Below, piece after piece: positions 5,799-14,623 of a stretch of 30,219 nt of DNA. The notes under the pieces were generated by a model. It ran no database searches. It was not told where the DNA came from and saw only the letters and a program-made list of their open reading frames with translations. The position numbers and the translations under genes are program-made. This DNA is from Deltaproteobacteria bacterium (GTDB taxonomy: Bacteria; Myxococcota_A; Polyangia; Haliangiales; Haliangiaceae): NCBI GenBank assembly GCA_041691735.1, contig JBEPUF010000004.1, positions 1 to 30,219 on the forward strand. The letters are read 5' to 3'. Within the stretch, counting starts at the first letter, position 1. Each line of letters begins with the position of its first letter.

Positions 5799-7055
5799 TC
5801 ACCCGGGCTTCTGATCGACGCGCGGCGTGAGATAGATGCGACCCAGCCGCGCGATCCACGGCCCGAACGCGACCAGCCAGCCGACGGCGGCGATCGCGAG
5901 CCATGCCGGCGGATCCGAGGTCTGGTCGGCGATGATCCGCGTGACCGCGACCAGCTGGATCGCGACGAACGTGAACCACGCGACGCCGGGCATGACGAGC
6001 GGCCGCCCCGAATGGCCCTGCGTCACGCGGGTGACCATCGCGACCAGCGCGCTCCCGAAGAAGCCGATGAACAGCGCGTGCGCCGGCGCGAGCCCGAGCC
6101 GGAATGCGCCGGCGCTCGCGTAGGCGATGCCGTCGATCGTGTGGAGCACCATCGCGATCGGCAGCCACGCCAGCGCGACGAACAGCACCGTGAGGAGCCC
6201 TGGCTTGGGGCCGCGCGGCCACCAGCGCCACCACGCGATCGAGGTCAACACGGCGAGCGCGCCGTCGGGGATCCACAGCCATCGCAGCCCCTCTGCCAGC
6301 GCGAGCGCCAGGTGGAGCAGCACCGCCGACCACACCGCCGCGAGCAGCCACATCGGCCGCCACGGCTGGTAGCCGGCGACCACACCGCCCGCGAAGAACG
6401 GAAACATCCGATGCGCGACGGTGAAGAACACCAGGAACAGCGTGCCGAACCCGCCGAGCACGATGCTCGCCGGCACCCAGGACGGCGATGCCCCGAGCAG
6501 GAACGCGCCGAACGTGATGATGCCGGCGTAGCCCAGCAAGAGCGCGCCCACACACGATCGCGCGTGCCACGTGGTGCCCTCTTCGCGCCACAGCATCGGT
6601 ATCAGCACCGCGAGCGCAGCGCTCCAGCCGGCGAGCGTCAGCGCCGCGCCGACGAGGATCAACGCGTGTGACCCGAGCGCGCCTGCGAGCGTCGCGAGCT
6701 GTCCACTCACGAGGGCGGCGCCGATGGGGACGAACCGTCGCGCCGCGACCTCGGGCTGCTTCGTCCACTTGGGAAACGTGGTCAGCAGGAACCCGAAGAT
6801 GAAGCTCGGCAGCATCTGGTACTGCATCACGAAGGCGTGCAGCCAGCGCGGAAACACCGGCGGGTACGGCAAGGCGACGACTTCGGGCCACCGCGAGTGA
6901 ACGAGCCACGCCGCCCACCACACCATCGCGAGCATCACGTTCATCGCGCCCGCGAAGAACATCAGGCGATGAGGAGCGGCGCCGAGTCGACGCGCCGAGA
7001 CCGTCCACGATCTCGCGCCAACCTGCGGTACGGTGTTCTCTCCCGCAGCGCCCAT
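5799..7055 (-). CDS. nnrS: NnrS family membrane protein (NO response)
   Basis: APHRLMFFAG...HxFxMxY...GFLLTxxPxW...HALFIGFFGSALVAMVTRVTQGHSGRPL, about 12 hydrophobic segments. Start chosen at ATG 7055; the ORF is open to 7208. Confidence 0.9.
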   Translation of the reverse strand: MGAAGENTVPQVGARSWTVSARRLGAAPHRLMFFAGAMNVMLAMVWWAAWLVHSRWPEVVALPYPPVFPRWLHAFVMQYQMLPSFIFGFLLTTFPKWTKQPEVAARRFVPIGAALVSGQLATLAGALGSHALILVGAALTLAGWSAALAVLIPMLWREEGTTWHARSCVGALLLGYAGIITFGAFLLGASPSWVPASIVLGGFGTLFLVFFTVAHRMFPFFAGGVVAGYQPWRPMWLLAAVWSAVLLHLALALAEGLRWLWIPDGALAVLTSIAWWRWWPRGPKPGLLTVLFVALAWLPIAMVLHTIDGIAYASAGAFRLGLAPAHALFIGFFGSALVAMVTRVTQGHSGRPLVMPGVAWFTFVAIQLVAVTRIIADQTSDPPAWLAIAAVGWLVAFGPWIARLGRIYLTPRVDQKPG

Positions 7056-7215
7056 GGGTCGAGGTCTACCCCGGTGCCGCGGCCGCGCCAGGGCCACACG
7101 TGTGTCTTGTTGTCGCGTGGATCCGGGATGGGCTGGCCGCGCGGCCGCGCGCTCGACGACGCGCTGCTGAGCGCGGCGCTTCTCCGCCCCTTCGCGTTGA
7201 GCGTCCACGATCCGG

Positions 7216-9489
7216 GTGCCAGACTGGACCGTGTCGCGCGAACCTGAACCGAGGGCGCCCCTCGGCCGTCACCTGGCGCTCGGCACCGCGTCGTTCGCCC
7301 TGAGCTTCGCAGCATGGGGGTTGATCAGCGCGTCGGCGACCATGTGGCGCGCGCGCTTCGCGCTCAGCGGGTCCGAGACCGGCCTCCTGATCGCAGCCCC
7401 GGTCCTGTTCGGCGCGATCGCGCGCATCCCGGTCGGCTTGCTCGCCGATCGGTTCGGTGCGAGGCGGGTGCTGGCGCTGCTCATGATCGGGTGCGCGGTG
7501 CCGATCGCGTACGTGCCGCACGTGGCCAGTTTCCGCGCGCTGGTCGCGAGCGCCTTGATGCTCGGTTTCGCCGGCGCCAGCTTCGCGGCCGGCGTCTCGT
7601 ATGTGTCGGGATGGGCGCCCCCAGCGCGCCGCGGCACCGCGCTCGGCGTGTTCGGCATCGGCAACGGCGGCCAATCGATCGCGATCTTCCTGGGACCGCT
7701 CGCCGCGCAGGCGGTCGGCTGGCCGACCGTCTTCCACGTCGTCGCCGCGATGCTGGTCGCGTGGGGACTGATCTTCGGCGTGGTCGCGCGCGACGCTCCG
7801 CGCACCGGACCGGCGCATGGGCTGGGCGAGATGCTCGGCGTGCTCCGCCGCGAGCCGCTGGCGTGGGCGCTCGCCGCGTTCTACTTCCTAACCTTCGGCG
7901 GCTTCGTCGCGTTCTCGGTCTACCTGCCGACCCTGCTCGTCGACAGCTTCCATCTGTCCGCGTCGGATGCCGGCATGCGCGCTGCCGGCTTCGTCGCCCT
8001 GGCGACCGGCGTGCGGCCGGTGGGCGGCTGGCTGGCCGATCGCCTCGGTGGCGCGCGTGTCCTGTCCGGGGCACTGCTCGGCATCGTGCCGTTCGCGCTG
8101 CTGCTCGCGTGGCCGTCGATCTTGCCGTTCACCGTCGGCGCGCTGGGGTGCGCCGCGCTGCTCGGCGTCGGCAACGGCGCCGTGTTTCAGCAAGTGCCGC
8201 GGCACTTCCCAGCCCACGCCGGCACCGTCACCGGCCTGGTCGGCGCGGCCGGTGGACTCGGCGGCTTCTTCCCGCCACTGCTCCTCGGCGCCGCGCACGA
8301 CACGCTCGGCGTCCTGTGGCCTGCGTTCATCCTGCTCGCGGTCACCGCGCTCGCGCTGCACCTCCTTGCGCGTTCGGTGCTGATCCCGCGCGACCACGCG
8401 CGTGCCGTCGCGGTTCCGGCCGCGTGGGAGCCCGCCGTCGAACGCATCCGCGCCGGCGCATGGGCGACGATCGTCACCGGGATGCTGGTGGCGTCGATCG
8501 TGGTCGGCTCGCGCAACCTCCAGTACTTCGATCCGGCGCTGGTCATCTATACGTTCGCGGTGGTGTTCGCGACCTGGGGCATCGTCTACCACTATCGCGT
8601 GTGGCTCTCGAAGCCGCCGACCGCGATGTACTGGCGCCGTGGCTGGCAGGCGCTCGCGCGCGGTCGCGGCCGCGCGGCCGCGCGTGCGGTGTCCCTGGTC
8701 GCGACCCGACTTCTCGCCCAGACCTTCATCCACCGCCGTTCGCCGCTGCGCTGGTGGACTCACCAGCTCATCTTTTGGGGATGCATCCTCGCGGCCGCGG
8801 TGACGTTTCCGCTCGTCTTCGGCTGGGTGAGCTTTGCCAGCGCCCCCGACGATCCTGGTCGCTACGTCGCGCACCTGTTCGGCTTCGCCGCCGGCAGCTT
8901 CGCGCTCGGCACGCCGATGGCGTGGACGATCTTCCACCTGCTCGACATCGCCGCGGTGCTCGTCCTCGCCGGCATCGCGCTCGCGCTGTGGCGCCGCCTG
9001 CGGGATCGCGGCGCGCTCGCGCTGCAATCGTTCGCGCGCGATCTGTTCCCGCTTTTCCTCCTGTTCGCGGTCTGCGTGACCGGACTGCTCTTGACGGTGT
9101 CGAGCATGTGGATGCGGGGCGAGGGCTATCAGTTCCTCGCGTACATTCACGCGGTCACCGTGATCGCGACGCTGCTCTTCCTCCCGTTCGGGAAGTTCTT
9201 CCACATCTTCCAGCGCCCGGCGCAGATCGGCGTGAAGCTCTACCTGGAGCAAGCCGAGCGCGGTGACACCGCCGCATGCGCGCGCTGCGGCGCGGCCTTC
9301 GCGAGCCGCGCGCAGATCGAGGATCTCGGCGCCGTGCTCGATCGGCTCGGCTTTGACTACCGCCTCGACGACACCGACGGTGCGCCGCGCTGGCAGGACG
9401 TGTGTCCGCCGTGCAAGCGCAAGCAGCTCGCGATCGCCCAGCTCGCGCTCCAGAAAGTGAGTCCCCGTGGCACGACCCCCGCGTCCTGA
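7216..9489 (+). CDS. Fusion: NarK-type nitrate/nitrite MFS transporter + NarI-like di-heme cytochrome b + C-terminal Cys4 tail
   Basis: N-terminal ~395 aa carry the nitrate-porter motifs ARIPVG, GIGNGG, VRPVGG, GNGAVF and GGLGGFF. His codons at 8731/8761 (10 aa apart) and 9148/9202 (18 aa apart) have the spacing of the NarI heme ligands. The tail has CARC...CPPC. Confidence 0.8.
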   Translation: MPDWTVSREPEPRAPLGRHLALGTASFALSFAAWGLISASATMWRARFALSGSETGLLIAAPVLFGAIARIPVGLLADRFGARRVLALLMIGCAVPIAYVPHVASFRALVASALMLGFAGASFAAGVSYVSGWAPPARRGTALGVFGIGNGGQSIAIFLGPLAAQAVGWPTVFHVVAAMLVAWGLIFGVVARDAPRTGPAHGLGEMLGVLRREPLAWALAAFYFLTFGGFVAFSVYLPTLLVDSFHLSASDAGMRAAGFVALATGVRPVGGWLADRLGGARVLSGALLGIVPFALLLAWPSILPFTVGALGCAALLGVGNGAVFQQVPRHFPAHAGTVTGLVGAAGGLGGFFPPLLLGAAHDTLGVLWPAFILLAVTALALHLLARSVLIPRDHARAVAVPAAWEPAVERIRAGAWATIVTGMLVASIVVGSRNLQYFDPALVIYTFAVVFATWGIVYHYRVWLSKPPTAMYWRRGWQALARGRGRAAARAVSLVATRLLAQTFIHRRSPLRWWTHQLIFWGCILAAAVTFPLVFGWVSFASAPDDPGRYVAHLFGFAAGSFALGTPMAWTIFHLLDIAAVLVLAGIALALWRRLRDRGALALQSFARDLFPLFLLFAVCVTGLLLTVSSMWMRGEGYQFLAYIHAVTVIATLLFLPFGKFFHIFQRPAQIGVKLYLEQAERGDTAACARCGAAFASRAQIEDLGAVLDRLGFDYRLDDTDGAPRWQDVCPPCKRKQLAIAQLALQKVSPRGTTPAS

Positions 9490-11695
9490 CGACGAGCTCG
9501 TCGCCGAGTTCGGACCGCATCCGGCGAACGAGCCGCCGGGCGGATGGCAGGGCCCGAGCGACGGCCCGCCGCCGGAGCTGGTCAAGACGCACTGCTGCTT
9601 CTGTGGCCAGCAGTGCGGCATCCAGCTCAAGGTGCAAGAGGGCCGCGTGGTCGGCTTCGAGCCGTGGGAGGAGTTCCCGTTCAATCGCGGCATGCTGTGC
9701 CCCAAGGGCGTGCGCCGCTATCTGCAGGACAACCACCGCGATCGCCTGCTCGCTCCGCTCGTGCGTGACGATGCCGGCTTTCGCCCGACGACGTGGGATG
9801 ACGCCCTCGCGCGCACCGTGCGCGGGTTGCAGGAGATCCAGGCCGCGCACGGCAAGGACGCGGTCGCCGTGCTCGGCGGCGCGTCGCTCACGACCGAGAA
9901 GTCGTACCTGGTCGGCAAGCTCGCGCGCGTCGCGCTCGGCACCCGCCACGTCGACTACAACGGACGCCTGTGCATGGTGTCGGCCGGCGTGCCGTACAAG
10001 CACACGTTCGGCGTCGATCGCTCGCCGAACCCGTGGAGCGACATTCCGAAGGCGCAGGTCCTGTTCGTGATCGGCGCCAACATCGGTGAGTGCGCGCCGA
10101 TCACCACCGACTACGTCTGGCGATGTCTCGACGCCGGCGGCACGCTGATCGTCGCCGATCCGCGCGCGACCCCGATCACGCGCAAGGCCGATCTCTACCT
10201 GCCGGTGCGGCCCGGCACCGATCTCGCGATGCTGCTCGCGATGCTCCACGTGGTCGTGCGCGACGGCCTCGAGAAGCGCGACTTCCTCGACGCCCACACC
10301 ACCGGCTGGGCCGAGGTCGCGGCCGAGGTCGCCGACTGGGACCCGGTGCGCGCCGCGCGCATCTGCGGCGTCAAGGCCGACGCGATCGAGCGCGCCGCCC
10401 ACCTGATCGCGAAGGCCGATCGCGCGATCGCGATGCACGCGCGCGGGCTCGAGCATCACTCGAAGGGCGTCGAGAACTGTCAGGCCGCGATCAATCTCAT
10501 GCTCGCGTGCGGCCACATCGGTCGCGAGGGCGCCGGCGTCCTCATGATCACCGGGCAAGGCAACGGCCAGGGCGGCCGCGAGCACGGGCAGAAGTGCGAC
10601 CAGCTGCCTGGCATGCGCCAGATCCAGGATCCCGCGGCGCGCGCCCATGTCGCCAAGGTGTGGGGCATCGCGCCCGAGGAGCTGCCAGGCGCCGGGCTGA
10701 CCGCGCTCGAGATCGTCGAGGCGATCCATCGCGGCGAGATCCGCGGGCTCCTGCTCCTCTGCTTCAACCCGATGGTGTCGCTGCCGGATGGCAACTACAT
10801 CCGCGAAGCTCTCGAGAAGCTCGAGCACTTCACGGTGATCGACTTCTTCCTGTCGGAGACCGCGTACCACGCCGATGTCGTGCTCCCCGGCAGCTTGCAA
10901 GAGGAAGAGGAGGGCGTGGTGTGCAGCACCGAGGGGCGCGTCTTGCACATTCGCCGCGCGGTGCCGCCGCCCGAGGGGGCGCGCGCCGACACCGACATCC
11001 TGTGCGAGCTCGGCCGTCGCCTGGGTGGGGAGCGGCGCGCGCACGCGTTCGCGTTCGCATCGCCGAACGAGGTCTTCGAGGAGCTGCGCCGCGCCTCCGC
11101 CGGCGGCGTCGCCGACTACGCCGGCATCACCTACGAGCGCCTCGATCGCGAGCTCGGCATCTTCTGGCCGTGCCCGAGCGAGGATCATCCAGGCACGCCG
11201 CGGCTGTTCGAGGACGGGCGCACCTATCACGCCGACGGCAAGATGCACCTGGAAGCGACGCCGTGGCGCGAAGGTGGAGATCCCCTCGACGACGACTTCC
11301 CGGTTCACCTCACGACCGGGCGCGTGGTCAGCCAGTACCTGTCGGGCACGCAGACGCGACGCATCGGTCCGCTCGTCGATTCGTATCCGGAGCCGCGGCT
11401 CGAGATCCATCCGAACCTCGCGGAGGCGCACGGCCTCGTCGACGGCGACTGGGTCGAGGTCGCCACGCGGCGGGGTGCGCTCACGTTTCGCGCGATGGTC
11501 GTCCGCACGATCCGGCCCGACACCGTGTTCGTGCCGTACCACTGGCCCGGCGCGAAGAGCATCAACCGGCTCACCCACCGGACCATGGATCCGCGCAGCA
11601 AGATCCCTGAGTTCAAGTCGTCGGCGTGTCGCCTGAAGAAGGCGGCGCCGCCGGCCGGCACGCGGCGCCATCTCCCGATCGCAGGTGCGCCATGA
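9467..11695 (+). CDS. Mo-bisPGD oxidoreductase catalytic subunit, Nas/NarB nitrate-reductase-like, cytoplasmic
   Basis: [4Fe-4S] motif [12 protein letters not shown]...LCPKG. Cys Mo ligand in [24 protein letters not shown] and LTTGR motifs. No signal peptide. Confidence 0.9.
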
Positions 11696-12270
11696 CCGAG
11701 TATCGCTTCATCGTCGATCCGTCGCGCTGCATCGGTTGCCGTTCGTGCGAGAGCGCGTGCGCCGAGTGCGAGACCCACCGCGGCCACTCGATGATCTCCG
11801 TCGACTACGTCGATCGCACGCGCGGGATCGAGACCGTGCCGACAGTGTGCATGCACTGCCACGATCCGACCTGCGCCGAGGTCTGCCCGGCCGACGCGAT
11901 CAAGCAGAACGAGGATGGCGTGGTGATGTCGTCGCTCAAGCCGCGCTGCATCGCGTGCTCGAACTGCGTGCTCGCCTGCCCTTTCGGCGTGCCGAAGATG
12001 ATGATCCGGTTCGAGCAGATGATGAAGTGCGACATGTGCCTCGACCGGACGTCGGAGGGGCTGCGCCCGATGTGCGCGACGGTCTGCCCCAGCCAGGCGC
12101 TCAGCTATCGCCCGGTCGGCGAGGTCGAGCGCGATCGGCGCGAGACGCCCGTCAACGAGTTCGCGTTCGGCCGGCAGGTCGTGACGACCAAGGTCTTCGT
12201 GATGGTGCCCGAGGGCACCGAACGCGTCGTCATCGACGTCGCCGACCACGTCTGGGAGGAGCCGTCATGA
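11692..12270 (+). CDS. 4x[4Fe-4S] electron-transfer subunit (DmsB/NrfC/FdnH-like)
   Basis: ATGA overlap with the upstream stop. [37 protein letters not shown] and CDMC...CATVCP. Confidence 0.92.
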
Positions 12271-12791
12271 ACGAGCCACCGCGTCCACGCCAGCTGTGGC
12301 GCGAGGAGGTCAGCGTCCGCGCCGCCGAGGAGCGCTACGTCAGCCGCCGCCAGCTCGGCAAGTTCCTCGTGCTGACCAGCTTCGGGATGCTGGTCGGCAA
12401 CGCGTGGATCCTCGTCAAGGCAGGGCTGCGCCGAGCTGCAGCGCGCCTGCTGCCCGCGAAGATCGCCGCGCCCGGCGAGCCGCCGACCGGTGAAGTGAAG
12501 CTGTTCGACTATCCGACTGCCGAAGATCGCTGCCTGCTGGTGCGCGCGCGCGACGGGAGCCTGCACGCGTTCACGCAGAAGTGCACGCACCTCTCGTGCG
12601 CGGTCATCTACTCGGCCGAGCGTGATCGCCTCGAGTGCCCGTGCCACGACGGGATCTTCTCGATCCGCACGGGCGCGGTCCTCGGCGGTCCGCCGCCGCG
12701 GCCGTTGCCGCGCATCGTCCTCGACGAGCGCGCCGACGGCGTCTGGGCGGTGGGAATCGACGATGGCGGGGCGGACGGCGAGGACGGATGA
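12267..12791 (+). CDS. Membrane-anchored Rieske [2Fe-2S] protein with twin-Arg motif
   Basis: ATGA overlap. SRRQLGKFL followed by a hydrophobic helix. Boxes CTHLSC and CPCHDGIF, and a GPPPRPL loop. Confidence 0.92.
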
Positions 12792-13027
12792 TGCGCCCGC
12801 CGCCCCCCGATCGCCGGCGCGCGCTGTCCGCGCTCGACGGCGTGATCGCGCTGCTCGTCGTGATCCTCATCGCGCAGATGTGGGTCCTGGGCGCCTCGCT
12901 CGAGGCGTTCCTCGCCGGCCACCCGTCAAGCGCGATCGCAGGGGCGATCGCCTCGGCCGTTCTGTTCGCAGGCGCGCTCGGCCTCTACCTCTTCCTTCGT
13001 CGCATCGATCGCGAGGCGAGTCGCTGA
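12788..13027 (+). CDS. Small two-TM protein (resembles DUF6755)
   Basis: ATGA overlap. ALLVVILIAQMWVLGASLEAFLAGH...LFAGALGLYLFLRR. The family name is from memory and unverified. Confidence 0.65.
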   Translation: MMRPPPPDRRRALSALDGVIALLVVILIAQMWVLGASLEAFLAGHPSSAIAGAIASAVLFAGALGLYLFLRRIDREASR

Positions 13028-13053: not shown

Positions 13054-13461
13054 CTACTTGCCGAACGTGCGGATGATGCGGACGAGCGCCTCGACGACCT
13101 CCGGCTTCTCTTTGAGCTGCGGCTGCGCCGGCATCGCCGGGCTCTTGCCAACAGCCGCTCCGCCCATGAGGATCGTCTGCTTGATCTGATCGTCGGTGAC
13201 GCTGGCTTGCCACGCCTTGTCCGTGTAGTTGCGGGGCTTCGGGTTCAGCGCGGCCGCGCCCGGACCATCGCCGAGCCCGTCCTGGCCGTGGCAGGTCGCG
13301 CAGACCGACTGGAAGATCGTGCGCGCCTCCTCGGTCGGGCTGGGGCCGGTCGGTACGGTCGTGGCCGCACCTTGACTCGGTGAGGACTCCTGCGCGGAGT
13401 CCTTCTTGCCGCACGATGTCGCGAACACGAACGCGAGGACGAGGCACCAACAATTGCGCAT
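13054..13461 (-). CDS. Monoheme cytochrome c lipoprotein
   Basis: MRNCWCLVLAFVFATSC lipobox, CATCH heme-binding site, distal-ligand candidate in AMPA. Confidence 0.88.
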   Translation of the reverse strand: MRNCWCLVLAFVFATSCGKKDSAQESSPSQGAATTVPTGPSPTEEARTIFQSVCATCHGQDGLGDGPGAAALNPKPRNYTDKAWQASVTDDQIKQTILMGGAAVGKSPAMPAQPQLKEKPEVVEALVRIIRTFGK

Positions 13462-13474
13462 GTTCGACGCAGGC

Positions 13475-13490
13475 TGCAACGCACGCGCCA
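13475..13490 (-). promoter_or_regulatory. sigma54 promoter for cytochrome c gene
   Basis: Minus strand reads TGGCGCGTGCGTTGCA. Confidence 0.7.
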
Positions 13491-13523
13491 CCACCCACCA
13501 TCGGAGGATCGCAACGACCGAGC

Positions 13524-13570
13524 TGCGAACAATCTGCGTCGCAATCCTCGGTCGACGTAACCTGTTCGCG
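13524..13570. promoter_or_regulatory. Pair of 17-bp candidate activator sites between divergent sigma54 promoters
   Basis: TGCGAACAATCTGCGTC (13524-40) and CGCGAACAGGTTACGTC (reverse complement of 13554-70), centres 30 bp apart. Confidence 0.55.
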
Positions 13571-13621
13571 ATCAGGCTCGAGAGCGCGCGATGCCGCGGA
13601 GGCGCACGACTTGGATCGCGT

Positions 13622-13637
13622 TGGCGCGACCCGTGCT
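13622..13637 (+). promoter_or_regulatory. sigma54 promoter for CMD gene
   Basis: TGGCGCGACCCGTGCT with GG-N10-GC spacing. Confidence 0.6.
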
Positions 13638-13662
13638 TTCGTGTGCCGGGCATGGAGGCACC

Positions 13663-13992
13663 ATGACCGATTCCCTCTATCCGTTGCCGACGAGCGATCT
13701 GGCGAAGCGGCGCCGCGAGCTCGCACCTGACGTTGAAGCGGCGTTCCTGCAGTTCAGCCGCGCCGTCTTTCACGAAGGCGCCCTCTCACGCAAGACAAAG
13801 CAGCTCATCGCGGTCGCGGTGGCGCACGTGACGCAGTGTCCCTACTGCATCCGAGGGCACACGAAGGCCGCCACTGGCGAAGGCGCGACCGCCCAAGAAG
13901 TCATGGAGGCGATCTGGGTGGCTGCGGAGATGCGGGCGGGCGGCGCATTTGCCCATGCGGCAATCGCGATCGACGCCCTGCCCGAGCAGTGA
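13663..13992 (+). CDS. Carboxymuconolactone decarboxylase family, AhpD-like (CxxC)
   Basis: GGAGG RBS. LSRKTKQLIAVAVAHVTQCPYCIRGH...EVMEAIWVA. Confidence 0.9.
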   Translation: MTDSLYPLPTSDLAKRRRELAPDVEAAFLQFSRAVFHEGALSRKTKQLIAVAVAHVTQCPYCIRGHTKAATGEGATAQEVMEAIWVAAEMRAGGAFAHAAIAIDALPEQ

Positions 13993-14215
13993 CCCACGGC
14001 GCGGCGGAGGCTCGCTGCGCGTCGCCTTGTGTTCGCGACCTCGGCGCCGGCTCTGCTGTCGTGACGACGGGTGCGATCTACGTGAGGAACTCGGGTAGCA
14101 TTCCCAGTTGAGGCAACACGACCGGCAGAAGTAGTTGTCGCTCATCATGCGGGGATGGCTTGGTGAAGGCCGGACGCGGCGGTTGGCGCCGATCGGCGGC
14201 CGGTGAGCGCGATGT

Positions 14216-14623
14216 CTAGAGATGGAAGTCACCGTTCGCTTCGGGCTGGTAGCGAACGGCGACGACCGCGATGCGCCGCAGCCCGGTAGGGAACGGCCAC
14301 TCGATCTCCTGATCGACCTTGAGACCGAGGAGCGCGCTGCCGATCGGCGCGAGCACGGACACGTATCCGCGGCGCACGTCGGCGTCCCTGGGATATACGA
14401 CGCGAACGATGCGGCGAGCTCCGCTCGTGCAGTCCTTGTAGACCACATCGCTGTTCATCGTGACGACGTCCGCAGCGACGACATCGTGCTTGACGATCAA
14501 CGCACGTTGCAGTTCCCAGTCGAGTGACTCCGATACGAGCGTGTCGTAGCGATCGAGCACCGGAAGAAGGCGCCGCAGATCGAGGTCGGTGATGACGATG
14601 TCGTGCTCGAAGGTCGTGTTCAT
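14216..14623 (-). CDS. rnk: Rnk / GreA-GreB C-terminal-type RNA polymerase-binding factor
   Basis: IVITDLDLRRL...DVVTMNSDV.Y...VYPRDAD...G.VSVLAPIGSALLGL..DQEIEWP.P.G...I.V..V.YQPEA.GD. Confidence 0.9.
   Translation of the reverse strand: MNTTFEHDIVITDLDLRRLLPVLDRYDTLVSESLDWELQRALIVKHDVVAADVVTMNSDVVYKDCTSGARRIVRVVYPRDADVRRGYVSVLAPIGSALLGLKVDQEIEWPFPTGLRRIAVVAVRYQPEANGDFHL

Follow-up and report, generated by a model that had tools for sequence, protein, structure and literature searches.

Three bacterial nitrate reductase systems are recognised in textbooks and in recent surveys of molybdenum (Mo) enzymes, among them a 2023 survey of the superfamily, and NasC/NasA is treated there as purely assimilatory (PMC10100899). 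In Paracoccus, NasC works with a Rieske-type protein, NasG (PMC3475470). In Bacillus bataviensis, a short NasC (729 residues) that lacks the C-terminal cluster is linked to an iron-sulfur (FeS) protein and a Rieske-type protein, and other Bacillus share this arrangement (Heylen and Keltjens 2012, PMC3475470). That report gives the cluster two sentences, calls the FeS protein HCP, mentions neither a cytochrome b nor a transporter, and reads the system as assimilatory. For haloarchaea, a Rieske/cytochrome b pair (NarB/NarC), linked to pNarGH, is reported to lie within a nitrate reductase operon (PMC3509893, PMC2483277). The present study concerns a five-gene operon at positions 7216-13027 of contig JBEPUF010000004.1, from a metagenome-assembled genome (MAG) of the Haliangiaceae (assembly GCA_041691735.1). 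The window analysed was this one whole contig of 30.2 kb (30,219 nt); the source MAG comprises 6.04 Mb in 1229 contigs, with about 70% G+C, and is 90% complete.

The operon combines a Mo subunit of the Nas kind with a NarK-type transporter fused to a cytochrome b domain, a four-cluster ferredoxin, a Rieske protein and a small membrane protein. On balance, the gene products probably form a membrane-anchored, cytoplasm-facing nitrate reductase for dissimilatory nitrate reduction, in which a Nar-like redox loop would be built from different parts; we hold this reading with reasonable, though not high, confidence. The operon is common in soil and sediment bacteria, and its enzyme is probably a respiratory one that is now counted as assimilatory in gene surveys.

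Operon structure and subunit assignments

The five genes (g1 to g5) lie in succession on the + strand and are translationally coupled, with an overlap of 23 nt between g1 and g2 and ATGA overlaps at g2/g3, g3/g4 and g4/g5. A preliminary description of the same DNA had reported five overlapping genes with one 23-nt and three ATGA overlaps, and the coordinates agree. The genes and their parts are the following.

g1, 7216-9489, + strand: 757 residues; NarK-type major facilitator superfamily (MFS) half fused to a cytochrome b domain
g1 N-terminal half (residues 1-400), 7216..8415, + strand: NarK-type MFS nitrate/nitrite transporter domain (MFS_1, 2.4e-42)
g1 C-terminal domain, 8416..9276, + strand: putative six-helix di-haem cytochrome b of the NarI/EtfD/QmoC kind, with four invariant His
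g1 tail, 9277..9489, + strand: invariant CxxC...CxxC, predicted to be cytoplasmic
g2, 9467..11695, + strand: 742 residues; catalytic subunit of the Mo-bis(pyranopterin guanine dinucleotide) (Mo-bisPGD) type, Nas-like and Cys-ligated, without a signal peptide
g3, 11692..12270, + strand: 192 residues; four-cluster (16 Cys) ferredoxin of the DmsB/FdnH/NarH superfamily, without a signal peptide
g4, 12267..12791, + strand: 174 residues; bc-type Rieske [2Fe-2S] protein; twin-Arg at 12345-12350, cluster motifs at 12582-12647
g5, 12788..13027, + strand: 79 residues; two-helix membrane protein of family DUF6755 (PF20540)

Only Molybdop_Fe4S4, Molybdopterin and Molydop_binding were matched by g2 in Pfam, and its 742 residues hold no C-terminal extra domain. 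In comparisons with hidden Markov models (HMMs) the highest score was obtained with NasC (NF047855; 733 bits, cut-off 1100), followed by Fdh-alpha (551), NapA (240, cut-off 904), the AioA model arsenite_ox_L (139.7, cut-off 359) and NarG (TIGR01580; 38.8, cut-off 1084). RLCMVSAG and the motif [12 protein letters not shown] are both invariant, and g2 has the Cys ligand. In an alignment to FdhF, Cys-Met stands in place of the Cys/Sec-His of Fdh, and Thr in place of Arg333. About 60 of approximately 65 g2 orthologues carry a conserved 38-residue N-terminal extension without a twin-Arg, the remainder being truncated open reading frame (ORF) calls. The best solved relatives by sequence are formate dehydrogenases.

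In the Mo subunit tree, the proteins of the fused and unfused versions of the operon (see below) formed one clade with 100/100 support. This clade lies outside the pair formed by Ralstonia NasA and the Rhodobacter nirBD-linked Nas, and apart from the NapA and FdhF references; the tree holds few references, is without Bacillus NasC or cyanobacterial NarB, and has long branches for the NapA and Curtobacterium rows. The catalytic subunit had been described beforehand as Cys-ligated and Nas-type, with no export signal, without the C-terminal [2Fe-2S] domain of NasA, and not of the Asp-ligated NarG type. The Pfam matches, the orthologue N-termini and the narG score all bear this out, and the Mo-bisPGD phylogeny proposed as a check gave monophyletic operon orthologues separate from proteobacterial NasA, NapA and FdhF.

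The N-terminal half of g1 scored 191 bits with TIGR00886 (NarK family), under the cut-off of 311.7. It aligns to the NarU/NarK structures 4iu8 and 4jr9, with R70 at the place of NarU R87 and R267 at that of NarU R303. These two substrate arginines are invariant in 30 g1 homologues, the nitrate signature motifs GxGNxG and GGxGGFFxP are kept, and both fold and arginines are those of a NarK porter.

The cytochrome b domain gave no Pfam match, the NarI model included, and nothing below E = 1 in a sequence search of the PDB; weak matches, confined to membrane parts, were obtained with QmoC (1.9e-7) and the C-terminal part of TcuB (2.3e-4). Its AlphaFold2 (AF2) model had a predicted local distance difference test score (pLDDT) of 86. 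The top folds were EtfD (9ojn, Z 11.5, 239 residues), CybB (5oc0, Z 10.2) and NarI (1q16_C, Z 9.9, 187/224 residues), values that are by themselves no proof of homology. Only di-haem cytochromes b were found above Z 8, with b6 at Z 7.3. In a Foldseek comparison with the PDB, EtfD alone was relevant (E 5e-3, probability 1.00), the remainder being noise resembling G-protein-coupled receptors. Four His are invariant, namely H516 (8761-8763), H574 (8935-8937), H645 (9148-9150) and H663 (9202-9204), of which H645 and H663 are on one helix, 18 residues apart, like those of NarI helix V. Because the fold matches combine with this His pattern, assignment as a di-haem cytochrome b is reasonable. Judged by the six predicted helices and the strongly basic loops, the pair H574/H645 is placed close to the outer face and the pair H516/H663 close to the inner one, so that two haems would form a transmembrane wire. 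The outer face also bears a conserved beta-hairpin loop (T530-F557) with no NarI counterpart. C688, C691, C730 and C733 of the tail show no variation among the 30 homologues, and the Brevibacillus copy retains them. The likeness behind the earlier term 'NarI-like cytochrome b' rests on the fold matches and the four invariant His; the term applies only to the C-terminal approximately 350 residues of a transporter fusion, which have no NarI Pfam match.

The ferredoxin g3 matched Fer4_11 (2.9e-20) and the DmsB model (96 bits, under cut-off). Its 16 Cys, in four complete groups, are invariant in 30 orthologues, in accordance with the DmsB-like ferredoxin described before. A cytoplasmic location is predicted for the Mo and FeS subunits, because no twin-Arg signal was found in the g2 or g3 orthologues examined and because the cytochrome b tail and the Rieske N-terminal tail are conserved on the inner side.

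The Rieske domain of g4 was recognised by PF00355 (7.5e-12), with scores under every NCBIfam Rieske equivalog cut-off. Its nearest solved chains are bc/b6f Rieske proteins, the nearest of all being the Thermus bc Rieske protein 1NYK (menaquinol-type); AioB models and chains were also matched (arsenite_ox_S, 32.9 bits, cut-off 95.65). The protein carries [11 protein letters not shown], which is followed by a hydrophobic helix and then by CTHLSC...CPCHDGIF. In 30 aligned orthologues R27, R28, C106, H108, C111, C124, C126 and H127 are invariant, both disulfide Cys included. The RR pair falls within an invariant RRxFxKFL motif, and CPCHxGxF replaces CPCHGSxY family-wide. A segment upstream of the RR pair (PLWREEFSV..ERYV) is conserved too. 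Such conservation is uncommon in signal peptides and suggests that the segment makes a contact in the cytoplasm. A textbook signal for twin-arginine translocation (Tat), DRRGFMK, is seen in the Brevibacillus copy.

The product of g5 scored 40.5 bits with PF20540 (gathering cut-off 27), and Q30, W32, G44 and S56 are invariant. The Deinococcus wulumuqiensis copy is labelled 'DUF6755 family protein' in RefSeq.

Model of the proposed membrane complex

The cytochrome b domain, g3, g5 and g4 were modelled together, with g4 as the partner in question. The complex scored 0.80 in each of three runs and the controls scored 0.00, 0.00 and 0.45, and the model thereby passed; in the tool calibration, which is only rough for author-supplied alignments, the 0.80 mark was reached by 58/80 solved complexes and 2/110 mismatched pairs. 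In the model, residues 7-24 of the Rieske N-tail contact g3, and the Rieske helix lies alongside g5 and helix 2 of the cytochrome b domain. The Rieske cluster loops (107-112 and 125-129) contact residues 139-150, 164-173 and 226-242 of the cytochrome b domain, which are the conserved outer-face hairpin and the stretches just before the two distal-haem His. The model thus supports, without demonstrating it, an outer-face position of the Rieske cluster close to the distal haem and an inner-face position of the ferredoxin.

A Rieske protein with both disulfide Cys and CPCHDGIF, carrying a twin-Arg signal and facing the opposite side of the membrane, had been part of the preliminary description. 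The motif was read in g4 and its Cys are invariant. The placement, itself a prediction, is in line with a Tat motif that is invariant and occurs also in a Gram-positive carrier, and with the modelled complex; the structure prediction suggested at that time has the Rieske protein associated (0.80, best control 0.45).

Distribution among bacteria

More than 2900 full-length relatives of the fused g1 were present in the protein collection, and at least 476 of the species genomes scanned carried it. Among the matches listed, the carriers of the fusion were mostly Acidobacteriota, together with Verrucomicrobiota, Dormibacterota, Acidimicrobiia, Planctomycetota and Obscuribacterales. In the synteny survey of the five-gene block, which had been proposed as a check, the order g1-g2-g3-g4 was kept in 62/62 loci long enough to judge, and g5 was detectable after the Rieske gene in 54 of these; the flanks vary between loci.

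A phylum sample was composed of 201 genomes drawn evenly from the phylum of G041, a Bryobacterales MAG. The operon-type cytochrome b was found in 21/201 genomes, mostly unfused to a transporter, and the fusion is a minority form there. The cytochrome b-Mo-FeS-Rieske set (hereafter the module, with or without the fusion) was seen in 19/20 loci read, five of which have a separate narK just downstream. Among relatives of the source MAG the module is patchy (4/40).

The single candidate for a Rieske-less variant came from locus L093 (G130:C100) and was set aside: its FeS gene is 600 bases from the contig end, and its close relative L098 has a Rieske gene. L093 (1-1200) shows an nrfH-nrfA-cytochrome b-Mo-FeS run, and no Rieske or DUF6755 gene in the last 600 bases of the contig.

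There were no cultured carriers among the top protein matches; they were found only in the plasmid collection, and are Deinococcus wulumuqiensis NEB 479, Deinococcus sp. D7000, Deinococcus sp. NW-56, D. psychrotolerans and Brevibacillus laterosporus B9. The operon genes are DVJ83_RS17035 to RS17010 on plasmid pDrdI in D. wulumuqiensis NEB 479 and HLB42_19780 to 19805 in Deinococcus sp. D7000. The B. laterosporus locus encodes a cytochrome b, a Mo subunit, an FeS subunit, a Tat-Rieske protein and a small membrane protein. On the Deinococcus plasmids CP058536.1 (L112, 7889-9001) and NZ_CP031163.1 (L114, 8914-10026) an unfused cytochrome b of 370 residues is named 'MFS transporter' in the GenBank and the RefSeq records alike, yet contains no MFS domain; probably the name was carried over from fused homologues.

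Neighbouring genes and nitrogen metabolism of carriers

Genes for YtfE, NnrS, hemerythrins and regulators of the Crp/Fnr and Rrf2 types usually accompany the production of nitrite and NO under low oxygen. The flanking ORFs of about 65 loci were clustered. YtfE/RIC (ScdA_N and hemerythrin) occurred in 21 loci, in most of them immediately upstream and in the same orientation, and the other recurrent neighbours were Crp/Fnr (15 loci), NnrS (13), another hemerythrin (8), Rrf2 (6) and a sigma-54 response regulator (6). No assimilatory nitrite reductase, glutamine synthetase, nitrogen regulator or NarJ was recurrent among the annotated neighbour clusters, and no gene for a periplasmic acceptor was conserved next to the operon.

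In the window, the operon is accompanied by NirK (2 kb upstream), two hemerythrins, NnrS and a cytochrome c. No nirBD, nirA or narJ was found among the window ORFs scanned against Pfam, so that the earlier statement that these are missing nearby, and that nirK and nnrS are the neighbours, agrees with the scan.

The source MAG has NirK and a clade II NosZ, and no NarG, NapA, NrfA, NirA or NirB was found in it. Its only NIR_SIR (sirohaem) protein sits in a cysH/sat cluster. The module is therefore the sole visible candidate for nitrate reduction in this MAG, which looks like a denitrifier. The cluster (L090, 490-6211; G000:C26) is one of sulfate assimilation, with cysH, a fused sat/cysC and a NirA-family sirohaem reductase. 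The sirohaem enzyme has nitrite reductase as its best NCBIfam match and was rejected as such, its context making it a sulfite reductase.

Nitrogen genes of carriers and non-carriers were compared in the phylum sample. NrfA was present in 15/21 carriers and 34/180 non-carriers (Fisher p = 1.7e-6, a value that overstates independence since the genomes are related), NarG in 6/21 and 8/180, NirB in 2/21 and 1/180, and NirK in 0/21 and 5/180. In 5/20 loci nrfA, usually with nrfH, adjoins the module, one of them being the nrfH-nrfA-cytochrome b-Mo-FeS run mentioned above. In Acidobacteriota, then, the module keeps company with genes of dissimilatory nitrate reduction to ammonium (DNRA). The proposal that the enzyme feeds nitrite to NirK fits the source genome, where NirK adjoins, and is too narrow beyond it: none of the 21 carriers in the phylum sample has NirK and 15 have NrfA, sometimes adjacent and with its own NrfH.

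Loci L091, L092, L105, L107 and L108 (Acidobacteriota genomes G156, G132, G198, G188 and G235), which belong to one subclade, have the unfused module and a complete narG on one contig, at a distance of 5-25 kb. Two nitrate reductases thus coexist there in one island and do not replace each other.

Next to the operon, the listed starts of the NnrS ORF (5799-7208, - strand) and of g1 (7216, + strand) are 7 nt apart on opposite strands. The Pfam match of NnrS begins at residue 77, so that its true start is probably near 7055, which would leave about 160 nt for both promoters. No sigma-54 -24/-12 pattern was found upstream of g1 (7050-7215). Two ORFs converge on the operon end: a mono-haem cytochrome c (13054-13773, - strand) with a long N-terminal region before Cytochrom_C, and an ORF of 220 residues without a Pfam match (13786-14448, - strand). 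A cytochrome c' occupies the same place in locus L002, and cytochrome c is no conserved neighbour elsewhere.

A search of public runs returned DNA metagenomes only and no RNA, the best holder being a freshwater sediment sample. Two operon carriers, an Acidobacteriota MAG (G042:C4:63172-65784) and a Verrucomicrobiia MAG (G043:C568:4352-6907), also encode NarG-like type II Mo enzymes of 930-980 residues, with about 210-225 bits in the narG model, far under its cut-off. In Acidobacteriota genomes, several full-length NarG matches (G077, G132, G235 and G055) and several NrfA matches contain one in-frame TAG or TGA, which may reflect read-through at the start of the gene, a frameshift or recoding.

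Proposed role and alternatives

In the favoured scheme, nitrate would be imported, and nitrite probably exported, by the NarK domain. The fused di-haem cytochrome b would oxidise menaquinol at its outer face, and the electrons would cross the membrane via the two haems and enter the four-cluster ferredoxin docked inside, perhaps aided by the Cys4 tail. They would then reach the Cys-ligated Mo centre of the Nas-like subunit, where nitrate would be reduced to nitrite; the nitrite would be handled outside the cell, a task that would fall to NirK in the source genome and to NrfA in most of the Acidobacteriota carriers. Tat would insert the Rieske protein, with its N-tail inside against the ferredoxin and its helix packed on cytochrome b and DUF6755.

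Nitrate is the expected substrate because a NarK with invariant Arg is fused or adjacent, NasC is the best model and the Fdh His and Arg are replaced. A dissimilatory role is suggested by the nitrosative-stress and Crp/Fnr neighbours, the co-occurrence with NrfA, the adjacent nrfHA and the gene content of the source MAG.

Several points weigh against this scheme. What is observed is the gene set with its conservation, cofactor-binding residues, neighbours and co-occurrence, whereas the substrate, topology, haem binding, Tat export, use of quinol, electron path and role of the Rieske protein are predictions. The closest relatives of the Mo subunit are known only as assimilatory enzymes. Z values of 10-11 can be reached by helical bundles through arrangement alone, and the complex model shares the rough calibration noted above. 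The relatedness of the genomes makes the NrfA association less strong than its p value. NarGHI is also present in 6/21 carriers, sometimes within 5-25 kb, so the module is not simply a substitute for Nar; in 4/21 carriers NrfA, NarG and NirB were all unseen. Absences in the source MAG are weak evidence, given its completeness of 90% and its 1229 contigs.

The role of the Rieske protein was weighed within the dissimilatory scheme. Its cluster tip, modelled on the outer face next to the distal haem, suggests that it takes part in quinol oxidation or in electron exchange with a periplasmic carrier; it might also be a one-electron buffer that returns its electron to the distal haem, or an entry point for periplasmic electrons. 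In a special case of the scheme, quinol electrons would be split in a Qo-like manner, one passing over the Rieske protein to a periplasmic cytochrome c, cupredoxin, NirK or NrfA and the other over the two haems to nitrate, so that the whole would work like a bc-type complex with nitrate in place of a Qi site. The bc type of the Rieske protein with its disulfide and Tat anchor, the docking of the tip beside the distal haem, the hairpin T530-F557 that NarI lacks and the co-occurring periplasmic nitrite reductases all speak for such splitting. The stoichiometry would also fit, as turning nitrate into half an N2O consumes two electrons in the cytoplasm and two in the periplasm, in keeping with a 1:1 split. 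Against this, neither a cytochrome c1-like protein nor any other periplasmic acceptor is conserved in the operon or beside it, an adjacent nrfA brings its own quinol dehydrogenase NrfH, established redox potentials show that menaquinol-driven nitrate reduction has no energetic need of splitting, and one locus appears without a Rieske gene, though at a contig end. Splitting is accordingly regarded as rather unlikely. Equally doubtful is the wider claim that the Rieske protein and NarI-type cytochrome b make up a new quinol-oxidising site, a functional analogue of Qo on an unrelated cytochrome b, sending one electron outward to periplasmic nitrogen-oxide reductases and one inward to nitrate; if true, the complex would couple the cytoplasmic and periplasmic halves of denitrification or DNRA.

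The remaining explanations depart further from a dissimilatory nitrate reductase. An assimilatory enzyme fed from the quinol pool, its nitrite being converted to ammonium by an enzyme encoded elsewhere, would agree with NasC as best HMM, with the assimilatory reading of the B. bataviensis nasC, FeS and Rieske cluster (Heylen and Keltjens 2012, PMC3475470) and with NirB in 2/21 carriers, and ammonium made by NrfA could also be assimilated. It is nevertheless judged improbable: the neighbours are nitrosative-stress, Crp/Fnr and Rrf2 genes rather than an assimilatory nitrite reductase, glutamine synthetase or nitrogen regulator, the only NIR_SIR protein of the source MAG belongs with cysH/sat, the 733 bits fall under the NasC cut-off of 1100, and the clade is separate from nirBD-linked NasA. 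Export of the Mo and FeS subunits via the Rieske Tat signal, as AioA is exported by AioB, would leave the cytochrome b as an outer-face quinol dehydrogenase only. Arsenite oxidase shows the same pattern of a Tat signal on the Rieske protein only, and g4 also matches AioB models and chains. A periplasmic enzyme is made very improbable, however, by the nitrate importer fused or adjacent in nearly all versions, by the four His that imply a transmembrane wire and the Cys4 tail on the inner side, by the modelled contact of the ferredoxin with a conserved Rieske N-tail that lies upstream of the RR pair and stays inside, and by the AioA score of 140 bits against a cut-off of 359. A different substrate (chlorate, selenate, formate or, as an oxidation, nitrite), with an indirect link to nitrate, is the least credible of all. 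The small tree does put the clade next to the FdhF references on a short branch, formate dehydrogenases are the best solved relatives, and Nap and Nas are known to be promiscuous towards chlorate (PMC12769810); yet the catalytic His and Arg of Fdh are replaced by Met and Thr, the fused NarK has intact nitrate-binding Arg residues, and nitrite reductases and NO-stress genes are consistent company.

Should the enzyme be respiratory and quinol-linked, a large share of the 'narB/nasA' reads from metagenomes of soil, sediment and freshwater is currently assigned to the wrong process. The misfiling would affect Acidobacteriota especially, about 1 in 10 of whose sampled genomes carries the module. 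An enzyme would also have been found for the nitrate step of DNRA or denitrification in many organisms that lack Nar and Nap, the source MAG included. We know of no earlier case of a Rieske protein paired with a NarI-superfamily cytochrome b, and the pairing, if true, bears on the evolution of quinol-oxidising sites. Since there are isolates of Deinococcus and Brevibacillus with the operon, the question can be put to a direct test.

Comparison with known systems

A full-text literature search found no paper on the architecture of the operon, and 'DUF6755' gave zero matches. The distinct, conserved architecture claimed in the preliminary description, neither Nar, Nap nor ordinary Nas, is supported. 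New here are the link to NrfHA and nitrosative stress, a complex model that passed its controls and gives a topology, the minority status of the fusion in the phylum sample, and the cultured carriers. The nasC cluster of B. bataviensis is probably the same module, to judge from its published description. The Nap-Rieske/cytochrome b cluster of Caldithrix (PMC5317091) is another system, located in the periplasm and built on a bc-type cytochrome b.

With NasC, NasA and NarB the Mo subunit shares the N-terminal [4Fe-4S] cluster, a Cys ligand set within RLCM and the sequence [12 protein letters not shown], and NasC is its best NCBIfam match. In contrast to Nas, its partners are membrane respiratory modules instead of ferredoxin or NADH-NirB, and it is not linked to assimilatory nitrite reductase genes; the Rieske protein is a Tat-anchored bc type with a disulfide, unlike the soluble NirD/NasG. 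Nap has a twin-Arg signal on its catalytic subunit and NapB/C/G/H as partners, whereas the operon catalytic subunit orthologues have no RR, and the NapA HMM gave 240 bits against a cut-off of 904. AioA has a [3Fe-4S] cluster and no amino-acid Mo ligand, whereas the operon Mo subunit has a Cys ligand.

As in the bc1 and b6f complexes, the Rieske protein is predicted to be Tat-inserted, has CTHLxC...CPCH with a disulfide, and in the model has its cluster tip against the outer side of a di-haem cytochrome b. This cytochrome, however, belongs to the NarI/EtfD superfamily and not to the bc type; cytochrome c1 or f and a Qi site are absent, and the operon contains no gene for a cytochrome c. The Mo centre would be the end point of the low-potential chain, and the hydrogen-bond donors of CPCHGSxY are replaced (CPCHxGxF family-wide). 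EtfD (PDB 9ojn), the best fold match, and its relatives QmoC, TcuB and HdrE likewise join a membrane part to a cytoplasmic Cys-rich part. In the operon that part consists of no more than a four-Cys tail, a Mo enzyme takes the place of the partner, and an MFS transporter precedes in the chain.

The proposed enzyme shares its overall plan with NarGHI and NarK (E. coli, PDB 1Q16), in which cytoplasm-facing Mo and four-cluster FeS subunits sit on a di-haem cytochrome b that oxidises quinol at its outer side, with NarK as transporter. The parts differ: the Mo subunit of the operon has 742 residues and is Cys-ligated and Nas-like, whereas NarG has 1240 and is Asp-ligated, and the FeS subunit has 192 residues against about 510 in Nar. 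Unlike NarI, the cytochrome b has six helices, with its His on three of them, ends in a Cys4 tail and in the window is fused to NarK. The operon has no NarJ, and it adds two subunits to the Nar plan, a Tat-inserted Rieske protein and a DUF6755 protein.

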